Assembly (NCBI GenBank): GCA_018657475.1
Contig: JABHXC010000022.1
Span: forward strand, 1-49,934
Source of the DNA: Candidatus Woesearchaeota archaeon
Lineage (GTDB): Archaea > Nanobdellota > Nanobdellia > Woesearchaeales > GW2011-AR9
Direction: 5' to 3'
DNA: 49,934 nt
The translations under genes were made by a program, and so were the position numbers. Under the pieces are notes generated by a model. It made no database searches and had not been told where the DNA came from. It saw nothing but the letters and a program-made list of their open reading frames with translations. Below are positions 1,539-49,916 of the stretch, piece after piece. Positions within the stretch are counted from its first letter, which is position 1. The number at the start of each line of letters is the position of its first letter.

Positions 1539-2611
1539 TAGTCATATGCAGAAGAAGATCCAAAGGATTCTATTTCTAGTTGTTCAACATTTCCTCTATC
1601 AATTGAATATAAACTAACATCATTGACTTTAGAATTATCACCATAAGTTGCAATCATTACTTTACCATCTTCTGCATCTATAGCTATTCCCTTTTCCGTA
1701 TTGTCTAACTCTACTTCTGCCATTGCAGTAGATTCCCCTTCTAAAGGAAATCTATGGATTTGGAATATTTTATTACTCATTTTAACTACTCTATACAACG
1801 CATCATCTCCAGCTACAGTGGTAGTAAACTCTGTTCTTGGAATCCCACTAATTATAGTTTTCTTAACATTACCATTATTATCATGTGATCTTACTGAATA
1901 AGTATCGGTTTCTATATCATATGCTAAAGTAACTAAAATATCTCCCACTCCATATAATACTCCTTTATTACTTTTATCTTCGTATGATAAAACTTCTTCT
2001 GCTATTCCACCATTAAGACTTTGGCGCATTAATTGCCCTCCGCCAGTTCTTTTACCATACAGATCTGTACCTATTTTTTTCCTATAATAAGCATAGTCCC
2101 CAACAATAACAACATTATTTGCTTGTACACTTGTATGAGTTATTGTTTCAGCAGTTTTAGGATTTAATTCATAAATTGATGTTACTGTACTTCTACTAGT
2201 GATTGAGAAAAGTTTTCCATTCATAGTAAATGGTTTAATTGAACTTTTTGAATAAGAAGTTGAACTTGTTGTACTCATAACATCAAATTTTTCTGCAACG
2301 GGAATGTACCTGATGACACCTTTACCTGTAGTTTCCCACCTGATATTTGTAGCATAGCCACCACCTTCATTATTTGTATATTGTACACTAACAGGAAGTC
2401 TATGGGCTTCATCACTTAACACAGTTCTATAGAAAAATGCTGGACTGCCTGGAGGGATAGATTCTTCTTTTACTTCTTTAACATTTGTTTCTTCTGTTTC
2501 TATAGTTGTTTCAGAAGTTTCTGTAGATTCAACATTTTCATTGTAATTAATTTGTTCAGAACAGCCAATGATAAGAATTGTGATTAATAATAGAAGTAAT
2601 ACTTTTTTCAT
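1517..2611 (-). CDS. secreted lipoprotein-like hypothetical protein
   Basis: N-terminus MKKVLLLLLITILIIGCSEQ is a signal peptide with a lipobox-like Cys, followed by an acidic Thr/Glu linker and a beta-rich body. Confidence 0.6.
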   Translation of the reverse strand: MKKVLLLLLITILIIGCSEQINYNENVESTETSETTIETEETNVKEVKEESIPPGSPAFFYRTVLSDEAHRLPVSVQYTNNEGGGYATNIRWETTGKGVIRYIPVAEKFDVMSTTSSTSYSKSSIKPFTMNGKLFSITSRSTVTSIYELNPKTAETITHTSVQANNVVIVGDYAYYRKKIGTDLYGKRTGGGQLMRQSLNGGIAEEVLSYEDKSNKGVLYGVGDILVTLAYDIETDTYSVRSHDNNGNVKKTIISGIPRTEFTTTVAGDDALYRVVKMSNKIFQIHRFPLEGESTAMAEVELDNTEKGIAIDAEDGKVMIATYGDNSKVNDVSLYSIDRGNVEQLEIESFGSSSAYDYQFMFLD

Positions 2612-2685
2612 ATGTTAAGTATAATATTTTTGTTTATAATGATTTCTTTTAGAATTGAAAATTATAGAAAAAAAGAAAAAAAGAA

Positions 2686-2940
2686 TTAACGTCTTTTTCG
2701 TGTAGCTTTTTTCTTAGCAGTTTTTTTAACTACAGGTGCTGGAGCACATGAAGCGTTACATCCTTTGCATTTATTTGGCATTACTAACATTAAGAATCCA
2801 CCAATTGTCATTAATACTGCGACCCAAGCAATCCAACCTGTTAAATCATTCCATCTTGGCCAAACAAAAGCATTTAACAAAAGTAATGCGCCAAGAATTA
2901 ATTTTGTTGAACCCATACATTTTTTACAATTTCCCATCAT
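2686..2940 (-). CDS. small membrane protein with CxxC pairs and a basic tail
   Basis: 84 aa with two hydrophobic helices, CKKC and CKGC motifs, and a KKTAKKKATRKRR tail. Confidence 0.5.
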   Translation of the reverse strand: MMGNCKKCMGSTKLILGALLLLNAFVWPRWNDLTGWIAWVAVLMTIGGFLMLVMPNKCKGCNASCAPAPVVKKTAKKKATRKRR

Positions 2941-8585: not shown

Positions 8586-8732
8586 CGGACCTGGGAGGAC
8601 TTTCAAAGATTCTCAGATTTATGAGCGGGAACGCAGTTGACCGCGAATCCCCCTACCAGATCTGGGAGATCTGTTTGAACCCCCGATCCCAACCTTAGGA
8701 GGGTTGTGCCCTATCCACTAGGCTACAGGTCC
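8586..8732 (-). tRNA. tRNA-Arg(CCU) with a 74-nt intron in the T-loop (59/60)
   Basis: Hand fold: GGACCTG TA GCCT AGTGGATA GGGC A CAACC CTCCTAA GGTTG GGATC GGGGG TTCAAA[intron]T CCTCC CAGGTCC G. The spliced product is a canonical 73-nt cloverleaf. Confidence 0.85.
8600..8673 (-). other. BHB intron of tRNA-Arg (position 59/60, 74 nt)
   Basis: Outer helix GGGGG/CCTCC, central 4-bp helix TTCA/TGAA, bulges AA|C and AG|T. Splicing restores the T-loop TTCAAAT. There is an internal hairpin CAGATCT-ccc-AGATCTG. Confidence 0.75.
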
Positions 8733-41876: not shown

Positions 41877-41897
41877 CACTGGTCAACTGGACAAGTG
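41877..41897 (+). promoter_or_regulatory. 21-nt motif CACTGGTCAACTGGACAAGTG upstream of LAGLIDADG gene 1
   Basis: 19 of 21 positions identical to 44618-44638. Both copies end exactly 38 nt before the start codon of a LAGLIDADG gene. The motif contains a tandem ACTGGNCA 8-mer. Confidence 0.55.
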
Positions 41898-41935
41898 TAA
41901 GTAGAGTTTATATTCTAATAAATTATTTTTAATGT

Positions 41936-42688
41936 ATGAAAGAATTAGAAGCAGAATTTCTTGGAAGATATTTTGGGGATGGTTGTTTAACTGTAAAAAA
42001 TAATAAAGCACAATTTTCTATAACTGGTGATTTAAAAGAAGAAAAAGAGTTTTACAAAAGAGTTGTTGTTCCAGAATTTAATGAATTGTTTAATCTTTCT
42101 TTAAAGTTAAGAGAGTATAAATCTAATGGTGTTTGTGGTTTATATTATTCAAGTAAAAATTTTGCAAGAGAATTACAAGAAACATATAATCTTAAACCTG
42201 GAAAGAAATTAAATGTTAATTTACCTCTTCTTAAGACTAAAAATGAAAAAATAGCTTTTTTAAGAGGAATTTTTGATACCGATGGTAGTATTTATTTTTG
42301 TAAAAGTTATTTTAAAACTAAAAAACCAACTTTTTGTAACTCATTTCATTATAAACCAAAGATAAAAATAGCTTTAATCTCTGAAAAAATAATCACTTTT
42401 ATTTATAACATATTCTTGGAACTTGATCTCTCTCCAAGGATGTATTCTCCAAGAAAGCAAAAAAAACAAGAAAACATAATTTATGCGTTGGTATTGGATA
42501 ACGATAAAGATGTTAAAAAATGGATCACAGAAATTGGTTTTAAAAATATTAAACATAAAACAAAAGTAAAAGTTTGGGAAAAATATGGTTTTTGTCCGCC
42601 AAAAACAACAATAAAAGATAGATATATGATTCTTCAAGGGGTTTTAGATCCACTAACATTTTATTCTTGGAAACAGAATGATTTATAA
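41936..42688 (+). CDS. free-standing double-motif LAGLIDADG endonuclease-like protein
   Basis: LGRYFGDGC and LRGIFDTDGSIYF. TTTATATT box at 41907-41914, 22 nt before the ATG. Confidence 0.8.
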   Translation: MKELEAEFLGRYFGDGCLTVKNNKAQFSITGDLKEEKEFYKRVVVPEFNELFNLSLKLREYKSNGVCGLYYSSKNFARELQETYNLKPGKKLNVNLPLLKTKNEKIAFLRGIFDTDGSIYFCKSYFKTKKPTFCNSFHYKPKIKIALISEKIITFIYNIFLELDLSPRMYSPRKQKKQENIIYALVLDNDKDVKKWITEIGFKNIKHKTKVKVWEKYGFCPPKTTIKDRYMILQGVLDPLTFYSWKQNDL

Positions 42689-42781
42689 ATAACTTCTAGG
42701 TTCAGATTATAAACTTACTATGCGAAGAGACACCTGTGATACAGACATGCGGGGGTAGCAAAGTCTGGTTAAATGCGCAGG

Positions 42782-42802
42782 AGGGCTTTAGTGCTCTGCG
42801 AA
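42782..42802 (+). other. BHB intron 1 of tRNA-Leu (30/31, 21 nt)
   Basis: Central helix CGCA/TGCG, bulges GG|A and AA|A, inner hairpin GGGC-TTTAGT-GCTC. Confidence 0.75.
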
Positions 42803-42809
42803 ACTTAAG

Positions 42810-42852
42810 ACCAGCTTGATAGATTCTCTATTGAGCTAAGATTGTGTAAGCA
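42810..42852 (+). other. intron 2 of tRNA-Leu (canonical 37/38, 43 nt)
   Basis: Anticodon-loop CTTA pairs with TAAG 2 nt before the 3' site. Bulges AG|A and CA|A, outer helix CAGGA/TCCTG. The inner part is an 11-bp hairpin AGCTTGATAGA/TCTATTGAGCT, so the form is relaxed (BHL-like). Confidence 0.65.
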
Positions 42853-42973
42853 ATCCTGTCTCTTAGTGGGTTCGAGGGTTCAAATCCCTTCCCCCGCACA
42901 TTTTCTTTTTATTTTCTTTAATTGCTATATTTGAAACCATAGTTTTATAAACTGACCATTCAATTTGATGATT

Positions 42974-43369
42974 ATGGCATTCAGAAGAGAAAGTTCAGAC
43001 AGATCAAGTGCAAGGGGATCAAGAACCTTTGCAGGTAGAGATACTAATAAACGAGGTTCTCATCGTTCTGAAAGAGGTAGTTCTGGTGGATACGGTAAAA
43101 GAAGTTCTAGAGATTTTGGTGGAAGAAATTCTGACAGAAGAGGTTCTGACAGAAGAGGATCAGATCGTCCAGAAATGACTAAAGTAACTTGTGATTCATG
43201 TGGGAAAAGATGTGAAGTACCATTCAAACCAACTTCTAACAAACCAATTTATTGCAGTGATTGTTTTAGAAAAGAATCTAGCCCAAGATCAAGCGGTTCT
43301 GGTAGTAAAGATTTAGCTGAAATTAACAAGAAGCTTGACAAAATAATGGATGCATTAGATATTAATTGA
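42974..43369 (+). CDS. CxxC-x17-CxxC zinc-ribbon protein with an Arg/Ser/Gly-rich N-terminus
   Basis: CDSCGKRCEVPFKPTSNKPIYCSDC. Start chosen at ATG 42974, exactly 22 nt after TTTATAAA (42944-42951). The ORF-track start is 42965. Confidence 0.7.
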   Translation: MAFRRESSDRSSARGSRTFAGRDTNKRGSHRSERGSSGGYGKRSSRDFGGRNSDRRGSDRRGSDRPEMTKVTCDSCGKRCEVPFKPTSNKPIYCSDCFRKESSPRSSGSGSKDLAEINKKLDKIMDALDIN

Positions 43370-43492
43370 TTATTAATTTTATTTTTATTGTTTATTCATT
43401 ATTATTTGTTTTTCATTAAGATTCTATTTTAATTTATTTTTATAAAAATAAAAAGAAGATATATAACAGATACTTCTTTTTTTAGATAATAA

Positions 43493-44605
43493 ATGGGAAA
43501 TTTCAATAAATTAGGTTTGAAAAAGGAAATTCTTGAAGTTTTGTCTAGATTGAAATTTACTAATACGCTTGAAGTGCAAGATCAAATTGTACCTTTAGTA
43601 ATGAAAAGAAAAAATGTTGTTTTCACATCAAGAACAGGTAGCGGGAAAACTCTTGCTTACCTTTTAGGTTATTTAGGAAAAATTAATAAAAAACGAAATG
43701 CTCAAATGATTGTTCTGGTACCCACAAGAGAACTTTGTATTCAAGTTGGTAAAGAGATTAAAACATTTTGTGACATTTTAGGAATTAATGTTGGAATGCT
43801 TTACGGTGGTAGAGAAATTAAAGGTGATTACAGAACTTTAAACAAAAAAAATCAAATTATTGTAGCAACTCCAGGAAGATTAATTTTACACGTTAATGAC
43901 AAAAAGATTAAAGTTGGTGAAGTGAAATATTTAGTTTATGATGAGTCTGACCAGATGTTTGATCACGGATTTTATGATGATTGTTTATATTTGAAAGAAA
44001 GAATTAGCAATGATGCACAAATTGTATTATCATCAGCAACCATAACTAAAAAAGTTGATAATTTTATTAAAGAAGAAATAGTTGATTATGAATTATTACA
44101 AATTGGAAGTTTGATTCCTGAAAATATCTTACAAGAAAAGTTGTATTGTGAAAAAATAGAAAAAAATGAAATATTGTTAAATTTATTCTCAAAAAGGAAA
44201 TTTAAACGGGCCATGGTATTTTGTAACACTAAACAAAAATCGTATAACATTGCTCAATTTTTTCAAAAAAATAAATTTAATGCAAAATCGTTAAGCGGTG
44301 ATCTTGAGCATAAAGAAAGGCAGAACCATCTTAATTTGTTTAAAGCAGGAAAAATTAAAATTTTAGTGGCAACAGATGTTGCTTCTCGTGGTCTTCACAT
44401 TGAAACAGTTGACATAATCATAAATTATGATGTACCTACAAAAGAAGAATTTTATGTACACCGGATTGGAAGAACTGGAAGAGTTGATAAAAAAGGGTAT
44501 TCTTTAACACTTGTTTGTCCAGAAGATGTAAAAAGATTATCTGATATTGAATTAAAGTATGATCTGATAATTGAGGAAATAAATAAAAAATCTGCTTCTA
44601 ATTAG
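43493..44605 (+). CDS. DEAD-box ATP-dependent RNA helicase (DESD variant)
   Basis: Q-motif region, TGSGKT, PTRELC, DESD, SAT, HRIGRTGR. Confidence 0.9.
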   Translation: MGNFNKLGLKKEILEVLSRLKFTNTLEVQDQIVPLVMKRKNVVFTSRTGSGKTLAYLLGYLGKINKKRNAQMIVLVPTRELCIQVGKEIKTFCDILGINVGMLYGGREIKGDYRTLNKKNQIIVATPGRLILHVNDKKIKVGEVKYLVYDESDQMFDHGFYDDCLYLKERISNDAQIVLSSATITKKVDNFIKEEIVDYELLQIGSLIPENILQEKLYCEKIEKNEILLNLFSKRKFKRAMVFCNTKQKSYNIAQFFQKNKFNAKSLSGDLEHKERQNHLNLFKAGKIKILVATDVASRGLHIETVDIIINYDVPTKEEFYVHRIGRTGRVDKKGYSLTLVCPEDVKRLSDIELKYDLIIEEINKKSASN

Positions 44606-44617
44606 GCTTTCATCATT

Positions 44618-44638
44618 CACTGGACAACTGGACAACTG
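44618..44638 (+). promoter_or_regulatory. 21-nt motif CACTGGACAACTGGACAACTG upstream of LAGLIDADG gene 2
   Basis: Second copy of the 41877-41897 motif, at the same 38-nt distance to the start codon (GTG 44677). Confidence 0.55.
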
Positions 44639-44676
44639 CAGGGAAAACATTTAAATTAATTCATCTTATTAAATTT

Positions 44677-45330
44677 GTGATAGAACTTAATGAAGAAATT
44701 TGTGAATTTATAGGGGCTTTAATTGGTGATGGTTATATTGGTAATTATGGTTCAAGAAAGCAGCAATATCTTATTGGGTTGGTTGGACACAATAAACTGG
44801 ACAAAAATTACTTTGTAGATTATCTTTATCCTTTAATTAAGAGAAATTTTAATTTTGTAAATCCACATATTTATTATAGATCTGATGAGAATACTATTCG
44901 CTTGGTTATTTATTCTAAGCGTTTGTTTATGTTTCTTACGTCTCTTGGAATGCCAATAGGCAAGAAGTCAAGAATCATTAAAATTCCTCAAAAGATTTTA
45001 GAAAAAGAAAGTCATATTTGTGCAACAATAAGAGGAATTTTTGATACAGATGGTTGTGTTTTTTTGGATCGTCGTTTGAAATATAAACAACCTTATCCTC
45101 GTTTGGTGCTTCAATCAGCAAGTATTCCATTGATTGAACAGCTAGAAAATTATCTTGGGAACTATTTTACGCTTTATGTGAAAAAAAATAATCGAGATGG
45201 TTATAGGAATAATTTAGAGATTTATGGCCATCAACAGCTAGAAAGCTTTTTAAAGCGAATAGGTCTTTCGAATCAAAGACACCTGTCTAGGTGCCCCCAT
45301 GGCCTAGCGGTAAGGTTTTCACCTCGCTAA
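44677..45330 (+). CDS. free-standing double-motif LAGLIDADG endonuclease-like protein
   Basis: IGALIGDGYIG and IRGIFDTDGCVFL. GTG start. The 3' end reads into tRNA-Thr exon 1 and intron 1. Confidence 0.75.
   Translation: MIELNEEICEFIGALIGDGYIGNYGSRKQQYLIGLVGHNKLDKNYFVDYLYPLIKRNFNFVNPHIYYRSDENTIRLVIYSKRLFMFLTSLGMPIGKKSRIIKIPQKILEKESHICATIRGIFDTDGCVFLDRRLKYKQPYPRLVLQSASIPLIEQLENYLGNYFTLYVKKNNRDGYRNNLEIYGHQQLESFLKRIGLSNQRHLSRCPHGLAVRFSPR
45312..45330 (+). other. BHB intron 1 of tRNA-Thr (D-loop, 20/21, 19 nt)
   Basis: AGCG GT|A AGGT-TTTC-ACCT CGCT AA|A: central helix AGCG/CGCT with two 3-nt bulges. Confidence 0.75.
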
Positions 45331-45338
45331 ATGGCGTT

Positions 45339-45357
45339 AGAACAATAGTTCCGCTAA
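45339..45357 (+). other. BHB intron 2 of tRNA-Thr (anticodon stem, 28/29, 19 nt)
   Basis: GGCG TT|A GAAC-AATA-GTTC CGCT AA|A: the same architecture as intron 1. Confidence 0.75.
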
Positions 45358-45413
45358 ACCTTGGTAAGGTAGAGATCCCGGGTTCAATTCCCGGTGGGGG
45401 CTCCATTTTTACT

Positions 45414-49088: not shown

Positions 49089-49207
49089 CGCCAGCGCCCG
49101 GATTTGAACCGGGATATCCCGAAGGAAACAGGAGTTCAGTCAATCTAGGTTCCAGTCTTACGCCTTCTAAAAGAAGTCTGCGCAGTACCAGATTGTGCCA
49201 CGCTGGC
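49089..49207 (-). tRNA. tRNA-Ser(GGA)-like class II tRNA with one BHB intron plus an unresolved 15-nt insertion
   Basis: GCCAGCG TG GCA CAATCTGGTAC TGC G CAG[20 nt]GA CTGGAAC[15 nt]TCCTG TTTCCTTCGGGATAT CCCGG TTCAAAT CCGGG CGCTGGC G. The discriminator G and the long variable arm fit Ser. Confidence 0.65.
49158..49177 (-). other. BHB intron 1 of tRNA-Ser (29/30, 20 nt)
   Basis: GCGC AG|A CTTCT-TTT-AGAAG GCGT AA|G: central helix GCGC/GCGT. Splicing joins CAG to GA, which completes the stem CAGGA/TCCTG. Confidence 0.7.
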
Positions 49208-49232
49208 TTGAACTTGATCAGAACAAAGCTCT

Positions 49233-49916
49233 TTATAAATTTAATGTTGCTTTAAGAGTTTCTGTCTTCTTCTTGTGATAAAAACCAATAATCTTGTAAT
49301 ATCTTTCTCTTGCACTTTTTTGATTAATGGAAATAATGTGAACTTTTGAATAGGTTTCTTGTTTGGGCTGATATTTATAGTTACAATGATTTATTTGAAA
49401 CTCAGAAAGAAGATTTGAAATATTTTTCATTCCATTTTCATTCACTGTTTGAACCCTAATTGTCTTTTTTCCAACATATGCTTCTGCTGAGAAAAATGCT
49501 CTCAGCCAATTTATTTTTGATTCTTGACAAGTAAGAATAGAGTTTGGGAGGTTCCAGTTATGAGTATCAAACTTTGCAAGTTTTAAAAGGTCAGTAACGA
49601 TTAATTTGGAAGTTTTTCTAACTGCAAAATAATTCTTTAATTTTTTTGTAGAGGGATTTTTTAAGTAAACTTTGTTTAATGCGTCAATATATACATCTTT
49701 CATTAACTCATCATCAGGAAAAAAATCTAATTGATAATGATTATAACTCTTTTCTCTTCTAACTTGCACACTTCCATCTCCAGCGAGAAAACCACATAAC
49801 ATTGCTTTTAAGATTCTTGTTTCTTCATTTTGTATCATTGCTGCTTTTTCTTTAGCAATTTTACTCTTCCAACGGGAATCAGCAATTTTCTTATTTCTTT
49901 TAGACAAATCTAACAT
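49233..49916 (-). CDS. free-standing double-motif LAGLIDADG endonuclease-like protein
   Basis: LCGFLAGDGSV and LRAFFSAEAYV. Its stop codon overlaps the TATA box (TTTATAAA 49232-49239) that sits 24 nt upstream of tRNA-Ser. Confidence 0.7.
   Translation of the reverse strand: MLDLSKRNKKIADSRWKSKIAKEKAAMIQNEETRILKAMLCGFLAGDGSVQVRREKSYNHYQLDFFPDDELMKDVYIDALNKVYLKNPSTKKLKNYFAVRKTSKLIVTDLLKLAKFDTHNWNLPNSILTCQESKINWLRAFFSAEAYVGKKTIRVQTVNENGMKNISNLLSEFQINHCNYKYQPKQETYSKVHIISINQKSARERYYKIIGFYHKKKTETLKATLNL

Follow-up and report, generated by a model that had tools for sequence, protein, structure and literature searches.

Three genes coding for LAGLIDADG proteins, designated here LAG1, LAG2 and LAG3, are encoded in a 49,934-nt stretch of DNA from Candidatus Woesearchaeota archaeon (NCBI GenBank assembly GCA_018657475.1, contig JABHXC010000022.1, positions 1 to 49,934; G+C content of about 31%), hereafter called the window. 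An earlier note made from the sequence alone had reported that each of these open reading frames (ORFs) lies directly upstream of, and co-oriented with, an intron-bearing tRNA gene (for leucine, threonine and serine, respectively), and the coordinates of the three pairs were confirmed (Table 1). No further LAGLIDADG ORF was found in the window with hidden Markov models of the three families; the upstream region of LAG3 extends beyond the window edge. A free-standing ORF abutting a complete tRNA gene is present in all three units of the window and in more than 100 related loci. The loci that were compared (designated by L numbers) comprised (i) for LAG1, seven loci, namely the window, L001, L003, L005, L159, L160 and L161, (ii) for the LAG2-like genes, 80 metagenomic loci, near-identical pairs included, 74 of which offered enough sequence, and (iii) for LAG3, 29 loci for the upstream fragments and 26 distinct loci with enough downstream sequence for the tRNA.

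Table 1. Coordinates of the LAGLIDADG genes, of their partner tRNA genes and of the associated sequence motifs in the window
Feature	Position	Strand	Description	Basis
LAG1	41936-42688	+	250 aa, double-motif LAGLIDADG, tRNA-Leu(UAA)-associated family	Pfam LAGLIDADG_3, E 2.5e-6
LAG2	44677-45330	+	217 aa, double-motif LAGLIDADG, tRNA-Thr-associated family, GTG start	Pfam LAGLIDADG_3, E 1.8e-8
LAG3	49233-49916	-	227 aa, double-motif LAGLIDADG, tRNA-Ser(GGA)-associated family	Pfam LAGLIDADG_3, E 2.7e-11
tRNA-Leu(UAA)	42749-42898	+	exons 42749-42782, 42804-42810, 42854-42898	Rfam, E-value mode, E 1.5e-5
tRNA-Leu(UAA) introns	42783-42803; 42811-42853	+	21 nt (31/32); 43 nt (38/39)	
tRNA-Thr(GGU)	45293-45405	+	exons 45293-45319, 45358-45405	acceptor/T-arm scan; orthologous loci
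tRNA-Thr(GGU) intron	45320-45357	+	38 nt, non-canonical (about 28/29)	reconstruction
tRNA-Ser(GGA)	49089-49207	-	exons 49207-49178, 49157-49150, 49134-49089	
tRNA-Ser(GGA) introns	49177-49158; 49149-49135	-	20 nt (29/30); 15 nt (37/38)	
LAG1 upstream 21-mer	41877-41897	+	two tandem copies of CACTGG(A/T)CA, offset by 8 nt	
LAG2 upstream 21-mer	44618-44638	+	two CACTGGACA units	
TATA-like box of LAG1	41907-41914	+	TTTATATT, 22 nt before ATG	read from sequence
TATA-like box of LAG2	44650-44657	+	TTTAAATT, 20 nt before GTG start	read from sequence; inferred
TATA-like box before tRNA-Leu	42706-42713	+	ATTATAAA, about 36-43 nt upstream of the tRNA	read from sequence
TATA box of tRNA-Ser	49232-49239	-	TTTATAAA, contains LAG3 stop codon; about 25 nt before tRNA 5' end	
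Shared 10-mer, unit 1	42728-42737	+	AGACACCTGT, tRNA-Leu leader; 11 nt before tRNA 5' end	
Shared 10-mer, unit 2	45277-45286	+	AGACACCTGT, codes for C-terminal R-H-L of LAG2; 6 nt before tRNA 5' end	

A search of related genomes for the same adjacency, as proposed in the earlier note, revealed that it recurs in all three families. Indeed, (i) LAG3 is accompanied by tRNA-Ser(GGA) in 26/26 loci, on the same strand and with the tRNA starting 6-54 nt past the ORF, in bins of Woesearchaeota, Pacearchaeota and 'Micrarchaeota' in which the proteins share 37-61% identity and the flanking genes differ; (ii) a tRNA-Thr lies beside the LAG2-like ORF in about 74/74 loci, as a complete tRNA-Thr(GGU) starting 3-71 nt past the ORF or past its conserved C-terminus (..RHLxKI) in about 47 of them, with the ORF often reading into the downstream tRNA, as a tRNA-Thr immediately downstream on the opposite strand, 10-59 nt away, in about 14, and, in about 13, as a complete tRNA-Thr(CGU) that immediately precedes the ORF; and (iii) tRNA-Leu(UAA) is adjacent to LAG1 in 7/7 loci, on either side, namely downstream in the window, L160 and L161 and upstream in L001, L003, L005 and L159. 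L001 and the window have an upstream gene of 463/467 aa in common, yet LAG1 lies on different sides of tRNA-Leu in the two. Two traits of the window units, co-orientation and the presence of introns, are therefore not obligatory, given the opposite-strand LAG2-like loci, the variable side of LAG1 and the many intronless partner tRNAs outside the window. The chance adjacency of a given isoacceptor is estimated at about 0.1% per gene, assuming about 45 tRNA genes among about 1000 genes. Since the partner remains constant while side, strand, introns and neighbours vary, the link is not one of co-transcription, intron processing or chance; co-transcription was also rejected as a general cause of the adjacency because of the opposite-strand and upstream configurations.

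Additional LAGLIDADG paralogues adjoin tRNA-Leu in L116 and tRNA-Gln(CUG) in L098. In the latter (1680-2878, minus strand), a second LAG2-like gene directly precedes tRNA-Gln(CUG), behind which lies a duplicated piece of the tRNA 3' part (AATCCTGGCGGGGCT), so that the pairing of an endonuclease gene with a tRNA gene extends to further tRNAs. As a separate observation, another complete tRNA was seen just upstream of the unit in several LAG3 loci (L009, 2856-2928; L011, L021 and L038), for example a tRNA-Met (CAU) in L009, and hence the unit tends toward tRNA-rich spacers. In L009/L010, the LAG3 unit comes after EF-1alpha/S10 genes.

In four loci (L019, L087, L114 and L042), both halves of a disrupted tRNA gene flank the cassette made up of the ORF and its complete tRNA. 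The acceptor strands of these two halves pair mutually and differ from those of the cassette's own tRNA. In L019, the order is a 5' half (GCCCGGATGGGAC..), LAG3, a complete tRNA-Ser and a 3' half comprising the variable arm, the T arm and the acceptor TCCGGGC (..CCTGGTCCGGGCG). In L087 (fragments GCCTGTGTAGCTCAGTTGGCA and ..CAGCACAGGCT) and in L114 (fragments GCCCTTG.. and ..CAAGGGCT), the halves of a resident tRNA-Thr enclose an insert of 1-1.3 kb consisting of a TATA box, the ORF and a complete, different tRNA-Thr. The 5' fragment of L042, likewise of tRNA-Thr, measures 22 nt. In L019, L087 and L114, the tRNA beside the ORF looks foreign and the resident acceptor halves are kept.

Single fragments are found as well. 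A 3' fragment with T arm and acceptor follows the intact tRNA in L050, L060, L068, L071, L072, L076, L077, L087, L088 and L090, and a 3' fragment of tRNA-Leu lies directly after LAG1 in L001. On the 5' side, a remnant (hereafter ghost) of the tRNA-Ser D-arm, (C)TGGTACTGCG fused to TAGTAATAGAA, precedes LAG3 in 13/29 loci, and the whole tRNA-Ser 5' half is kept upstream of LAG3 in L014, L016, L019, L028 and L030. In L016 and L027, the ghost ends at about position 29/30, which is the first mini-intron position of the tRNA-Ser of the window and, by eye, of those of L009, L010, L018 and L023. Such an end, as far as the sequences tell, would fit intron-mediated protection or descent from an ORF-bearing intron.

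Empty sites, which the earlier note had recommended looking for, are represented by one case, in L111, where tRNA-Leu(UAA) and tRNA-Thr(GGU), both intronless, are separated by 5 nt and do not enclose an endonuclease gene. The same slot between tRNA-Leu and tRNA-Thr holds LAG2 or LAG1 in L008, L040, L046, L085 and L159. L116 and L111 were also considered as possible tRNA-Thr genes with a 1-kb LAGLIDADG intron; this was rejected because the tRNA-Thr(CGU) found upstream is complete and the downstream piece turned out to be a duplicate of the tRNA 3' part.

The three proteins carry the motifs FLGRYFGDG and FLRGIFDTDG (LAG1), FIGALIGDG and IRGIFDTDG (LAG2), and LCGFLAGDG and LRAFFSAEA (LAG3). The catalytic acidic residues, the lack of which had been named in the earlier note as part of a finding that would refute its interpretation, are invariant in the alignments of all three families: D15 and D116 in LAG1, D18 and D125 in LAG2, and D47 and E145 in LAG3, the last two within the invariant triplets G46-D47-G48 and S143-A144-E145. 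The fold was assigned from sequence profiles against the PDB for LAG1 and LAG3 and from a structure model for LAG2. LAG1 matches PI-PfuI, I-Tsp061I and I-DmoI, LAG3 matches PI-PfuI (4e-12), and the sequence profiles of the families also match intein endonuclease domains. The AlphaFold model of LAG2 (pLDDT 94.2, pTM 0.91) shows the order of helices and strands expected for the LAGLIDADG fold, a pseudo-symmetric double alpha-beta-beta-alpha-beta-beta-alpha arrangement with a beta-sheet saddle for DNA binding, and the top Foldseek matches are I-Tsp061I (2dch; E 9e-11, TM 0.73) and I-DmoI (TM 0.65-0.80), with bI3 maturase and WhiA as lower-ranked structural neighbours. No helix-turn-helix (HTH) or extra domain was found in LAG1-3 with Pfam. 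On this basis, the three proteins genuinely belong to the fold of the monomeric LAGLIDADG endonucleases, with apparently intact catalytic sites, and the archaeal rRNA-intron enzymes I-DmoI and I-Tsp061I are, according to the model, their closest structural relatives.

The earlier note had regarded the units as a repeated cassette, an interpretation that does not agree with the divergence of the proteins. LAG1 and LAG2 are remote homologues only (phmmer, 1e-7), and LAG3 matched neither of them in the phmmer comparison of the three proteins. By sequence comparison, they represent three diverged families, each conserved over many DPANN genomes at 40-65% identity, and their nearest relatives occur in bins named Woesearchaeota, Nanoarchaeota or Pacearchaeota. 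The LAG1 family comprises 64 homologue clusters (50-60% identity, Woesearchaeota), the LAG2 family 119 and the LAG3 family 147, most of the latter being exactly 226 aa long; the LAG3 family profile retrieved 87 clusters (at 50% identity) with E<=1e-30 among 1.84 billion representatives. The ORFs are intact in 79/80 LAG2-like and 28/29 LAG3 loci, figures that are subject to bias from the search patterns. A scan of viral contigs with the LAG1 alignment yielded only distant LAGLIDADG relatives (20-35% identity) and was not used.

Some variants of these proteins were also observed. LAG3 of L016 (1609-2250), where the whole 5' half of tRNA-Ser is kept ahead of the gene, and LAG2 of L042 (4001-4612) contain internal stops, and L113 is frameshifted relative to the near-identical L111; all three are possible decaying copies, and in all three a sequencing error is possible. 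A long LAG2-like subtype of about 325-336 aa is present in L053-L119 (e.g., L116, 3635-4645; L111, 3608-4591). It has an N-terminal extension of about 120 aa with the conserved pattern ..NWG..KGGK..Y..N...F.EGR.KG.., which has no Pfam match and may be an extra DNA-binding module. The top match of the LAG3 profile among the representatives, P0304 (454 aa), has double the usual length and two matched stretches, and may represent either a fused tandem pair or two neighbouring genes that were called as a single one.

All three partner tRNAs of the window were missed by ARAGORN and by Rfam at the gathering threshold, which points to a systematic annotation gap in standard tRNA finders. tRNA-Leu is recovered by Rfam in E-value mode and all three tRNAs by an acceptor/T-arm scan, in agreement with the orthologous loci. 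Introns were defined by comparing exons and introns across loci and by folding the spliced product; the deletion of every possible interval followed by ARAGORN was too permissive for this purpose and was dropped. Their in-silico removal yields canonical cloverleaves for Leu(UAA), Thr(GGU) and Ser(GGA) with ARAGORN, the folds of the whole pre-tRNAs retain the acceptor and T arms, and in L001, L003 and L005 the exon blocks of tRNA-Leu are conserved and the introns variable. In all three genes, the anticodon arm is interrupted by one or two introns. The description of these tRNAs as multi-intron genes holds for tRNA-Leu and tRNA-Ser, with two introns each, but not for tRNA-Thr, which has one intron in the reconstruction; with 15-43 nt, the introns are indeed too small to encode proteins, as had been noted. 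The tRNA-Thr gene encodes its 3' CCA (45403-45405). Its first 38 nt are overlapped by the last 38 nt of the LAG2 ORF, so that tRNA 5' processing would strip the stop codon from a shared transcript.

The first two units share a 21-mer (CACTGGWCAACTGGACAASTG) that ends 38 nt before the start codon in both, as had been described in the earlier note. It is found in the window at these two positions only, and none was obtained in 100 shuffles, even with 3 mismatches allowed. In terms of sequence, the 21-mer is composed of two overlapping copies of a putative promoter-proximal element, CACTGGACA (CACTGG(A/T)CA). This 9-mer occurs 36 times in the 750 kb formed by the window and the related loci, and about 28 of these occurrences sit 30-100 nt before a LAGLIDADG start. 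The element followed after 5-24 nt by a TATA box was matched 24 times in the same 750 kb; 19 of these matches precede LAGLIDADG genes, of all three families, and 3 precede a gene coding for a 281-aa PD-(D/E)XK (Cas4/Dna2-like) nuclease. The constant distance of 38 nt results from a fixed layout, namely the element, about 9 nt, the TATA box, 20-22 nt and a leaderless start. The geometry of the LAG1 TATA-like box agrees with that of orthologous loci, and its spacing implies a leaderless mRNA from this predicted promoter. The TATA-like box before tRNA-Leu is the probable promoter of that tRNA itself, and the stop codon within the TATA box (..TTTATAAA..) recurs in most LAG3 loci.

The distribution of the element suggests that the nuclease genes, LAGLIDADG and PD-(D/E)XK, form a shared regulon, and CACTGGACA is probably the binding site of a regulator common to the LAGLIDADG genes and the PD-(D/E)XK repair-type nuclease gene. 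It may be speculated that a homing element would benefit from being expressed together with a recombination nuclease. The PD-(D/E)XK gene (Pfam PDDEXK_1, 7e-29), seen in L010 (5560-5640), L017 (6612) and L027 (2656-3553), in each case on the minus strand, has, like the LAGLIDADG genes, the element CCAC(T/A)(G/A)GACAAC about 10 nt ahead of the TATA box. An origin of the 21-mer as a remnant of the tRNA-Leu D-loop (AAGTCTGGTCAAAT vs CACTGGTCAA; AAGTCTGGACAAAT in L008) was set aside because the element also precedes the tRNA-Ser-linked LAG3 and the PD-(D/E)XK gene, at a fixed distance from the TATA box. The 21-mer thus appears to be neither a cassette end nor an obvious cleavage site, nor part of the target.

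The second shared motif reported in the earlier note, the 10-mer AGACACCTGT, was retrieved at its two places before the tRNAs. The 10-mer is not significant as a window-wide k-mer (4 matches with 1 mismatch vs 1.95 expected); its paired position before both tRNAs is striking. The C-terminal R-H-L that it encodes in unit 2 is conserved in the LAG2 family. The 10-mer of unit 1 belongs to a 20-nt leader (GACACCTGTGATACAGACAT), which L001 also has before its tRNA-Leu, and would read R-H-L-stop there, like the C-terminus of the LAG2 family. The unit-1 copy may be an ORF-end relic or a leader/initiator element.

Taken together, these ORFs are best understood as free-standing genes of homing endonucleases that move as a unit with a replacement tRNA gene and insert themselves into resident tRNA genes, a reading to which we assign a probability of roughly 65%. 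From the family-specific adjacency, the flanking fragments, the conserved catalytic residues and fold and the distribution of the motifs, all observed in static genomes, we infer cleavage, a target site, homing and immunity through introns. Each ORF would encode a free-standing, monomeric, I-DmoI-like LAGLIDADG homing endonuclease, each lineage of which would be specialised on the gene of one tRNA isoacceptor, and the mobile unit would be a cassette of about 1 kb in which a promoter and the endonuclease gene are combined with a complete copy of the kind of tRNA gene that is targeted. In brief, the enzyme would cut a resident tRNA gene that is still naive, probably within the anticodon arm or close to it, and the break would be repaired from a cassette-bearing donor, with the flanking conserved D-arm and T-arm/acceptor segments serving as homology. 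The recipient would thereby acquire the endonuclease and the replacement tRNA, the ends of its own tRNA would persist as 5' and/or 3' ghosts, and the cassette tRNA would escape cutting through a different sequence or through a mini-intron interrupting the site. Such a cut-and-repair model fits the fragments, since the middle of the ghosts (the anticodon arm) is missing, their outer parts are those of the recipient and the intact tRNA looks foreign. The isoacceptor specificity of the families would follow from the anticodon arm being the isoacceptor-specific part of the gene. The suggestion of a mobile or duplicating unit put forward in the earlier note keeps its first half, with strong support from the comparison of loci, as the pairing recurs in dozens of genomes and pairs repeatedly occur inside disrupted tRNAs, and loses its second, a recent duplication within the window.

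Several points weigh against this reading. The only empty site that was found belongs to a genome without close relationship to an occupied one, and no closely related pair of occupied and empty genomes was found among the related loci. The three units of the window itself are without flanking tRNA fragments, and no ORF inside a tRNA intron, the presumed ancestral state, was seen among the related loci. The fragment junctions vary (D-loop, 26-32 and about 49), so that no single cleavage position can be deduced. The partner tRNAs are intronless in 8 of about 26 tRNA-Ser genes, for which an automated parse of intron positions was ambiguous and was kept only for this split between intronless and intron-bearing genes, and also in most of the tRNA-Thr genes beside the long LAG2 subtype; consequently, introns are not a general immunity and sequence divergence would also have to confer it. 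Lastly, families that are widespread, uniform in length (LAG3 mostly 226 aa) and nearly always intact also fit a host-beneficial, vertically inherited gene.

This last point leads to domesticated LAGLIDADG proteins that would have ceased to be selfish nucleases and would serve the neighbouring tRNA, for instance as WhiA-like, gene-specific DNA-binding regulators or as maturase-like folding or splicing cofactors of intron-rich pre-tRNAs, with the ghosts going back to one ancient insertion. The bI3 maturase and WhiA are indeed among the structural neighbours, at lower rank, the tRNA-Ser TATA box of most genomes has the LAG3 stop codon fixed within it, all three partner tRNAs of the window have non-canonical introns, and the ghost junction (GGTACTGCG..TAATAGAA) has been conserved in spite of the decay of the remaining ghost, as would be expected of a functional binding site. 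However, maturases and WhiA typically lose the catalytic acidic residues that are invariant in the three families, and Pfam shows no HTH or extra domain in LAG1-3. The pairing holds with intronless and opposite-strand tRNAs, which speaks against a role in splicing or co-transcription, the side of tRNA-Leu on which LAG1 is found changes between syntenic genomes, and the ghosts differ from the cassette tRNA and between lineages, indicating several independent invasions rather than one. Domestication, which the earlier note had offered as an alternative, is thus the weaker reading and we consider it unlikely.

A passive association is less probable still. tRNA genes are classic insertion hot spots, and tRNA spacers could be tolerated sites of landing or retention, or the adjacency could be an old synteny frozen by overlapping promoters, with no targeting link; the overlaps seen here (the TATA box in the LAG3 stop codon and the LAG2 ORF reaching into tRNA-Thr) would make separation costly. 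Passive landing predicts mixed tRNAs, whereas each family has one isoacceptor in about 100% of loci with differing flanking genes, the partner stays constant though orientation and side vary, and the cassette is found within a disrupted copy of the same tRNA type. Partial tRNA duplications around inserted DNA are a hallmark of integrase-mediated insertion into tRNA genes, and the tRNA pieces could accordingly be att sites of integrase-mediated elements or viruses targeting tRNA genes, the LAGLIDADG genes being cargo or leftovers; a phage-integrase gene does lie about 2 kb from LAG3 in L010. This origin appears very improbable, given that the inserts flanked by both halves (L019, L087, L114 and L042) have about 1-1.3 kb with a promoter, a LAGLIDADG ORF and one tRNA but no integrase, and that 5' and 3' fragments both occur and the resident middle is missing, unlike in a simple att duplication of the tRNA 3' end.

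Among known systems, T4 SegB seems to be the closest functional analogue of the window units. SegB is a free-standing GIY-YIG homing endonuclease encoded in a phage tRNA gene cluster, which recognises the tRNA T-psi-C motif, cleaves genomes lacking its gene and drives the co-inheritance of segB and the neighbouring tRNA genes (PMC2330249). The archaeal genes are likewise free-standing among or next to tRNA genes, with which they may be co-inherited; as with the T4 Seg and Mob enzymes, they lie outside any intron or intein and beside the gene of their presumed target. However, their domain is LAGLIDADG_3, not GIY-YIG or HNH, and they are carried by DPANN chromosomes and not by a phage, so that by analogy they would work like the Seg/Mob family without belonging to it. 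SegB acts during phage co-infection, whereas the archaeal enzymes lie in cellular chromosomes, and the archaeal lineages differ further in that each keeps to a single isoacceptor, brings along a replacement tRNA that is complete and leaves the halves of the resident gene in place.

The likeness to I-DmoI, I-Tsp061I and I-PorI consists in the same protein architecture, an archaeal host and a stable-RNA gene as the (predicted) target. These enzymes are encoded inside the bulge-helix-bulge rRNA intron that they mobilise, whereas the window ORFs lie outside complete tRNA genes whose introns, with the small sizes given above, could not hold them. The units thus differ from both the SegB and the I-DmoI type as LAGLIDADG genes in cellular archaeal chromosomes that lie outside introns and are paired with a replacement tRNA and ghosts. 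Group I introns with LAGLIDADG ORFs have been described in DPANN by Nawrocki et al., in rRNA genes only (PMC6125680), and no account of an archaeal pairing of LAGLIDADG and tRNA genes came up in full-text searches of the literature.

The case of T4 mobE and I-TevIII combines a free-standing endonuclease with an intron disrupting its site. In such collaborative homing, an intron protects the host copy from a nearby endonuclease and is co-converted (PMC2790892). In archaea, the intron of the neighbouring gene may similarly protect against the free-standing endonuclease; the phage introns are, however, group I introns in protein-coding genes, as opposed to presumably protein-spliced tRNA mini-introns, and many archaeal partners are intronless. 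Split tRNAs are known from Nanoarchaeum and tri-split tRNAs from Caldivirga. Archaeal split tRNAs and mobile tRNA introns are summarised in a meeting report (PMC10714607). They and the tRNA-targeting elements resemble the loci described here in that foreign DNA lies between tRNA halves, viability is maintained by a tRNA that is either reconstituted or a replacement, and the phylogenetic neighbourhood is DPANN. They differ in that the ghost halves lack the anticodon arm and look non-functional, and in that the cassettes flanked by both halves contain no integrase as tRNA-targeting integrative elements do.

If the homing reading is true, these units would be a cellular archaeal counterpart of the 'intronless homing' of phages, in which a selfish endonuclease destroys an essential gene and itself supplies a spare copy of that gene. 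This would explain the non-canonical introns that litter some DPANN tRNA genes, orphan tRNA halves and the horizontal replacement of tRNA alleles. It would also bear on the origin of archaeal tRNA introns and of fragmented or split tRNA genes and make this question experimentally approachable, and three or more compact LAGLIDADG families (about 205-250 aa) with predictable tRNA-gene targets would be of interest for meganuclease engineering. A more far-reaching and tentative idea, which we hold to be possible but rather doubtful, is that tRNA genes and the LAGLIDADG homing endonucleases specific for them have long been in conflict and that this shapes the tRNA gene architecture of DPANN, accounting for introns, split tRNAs and co-regulation together. 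In such a conflict, the anticodon-arm mini-introns (29/30, 31/32, 38/39, etc.) would be immunity devices or decayed ORF-bearing introns, the splitting of resident tRNAs by cassette insertion would be a route to the fragmented or split tRNA genes of Nanoarchaeota, and the CACTGGACA element would co-regulate the endonucleases with recombination nucleases, so that cutting coincides with repair capacity.

Furthermore, some neighbouring genes were identified in the window. The interval from the LAG1/tRNA-Leu unit to the LAG2/tRNA-Thr unit codes for a small protein rich in Arg, Ser and Gly that has a treble-clef zinc finger (42965-43369; zf_Tbcl_2, 2.5e-16) and for a DEAD-box helicase (43493-44605); several relatives instead have tRNA-Leu and tRNA-Thr side by side or with the endonuclease gene alone between them. 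The next ORF after tRNA-Thr, of the inositol monophosphatase family (start 45414), begins 9 nt past the tRNA. The sole other tRNA detected in the window (8662-8728, minus strand; Rfam, 31.7 bits) is intronless, was not reported by ARAGORN, has no LAGLIDADG neighbour and, with the anticodon loop CUCCUAA, is apparently a tRNA-Arg(CCU).

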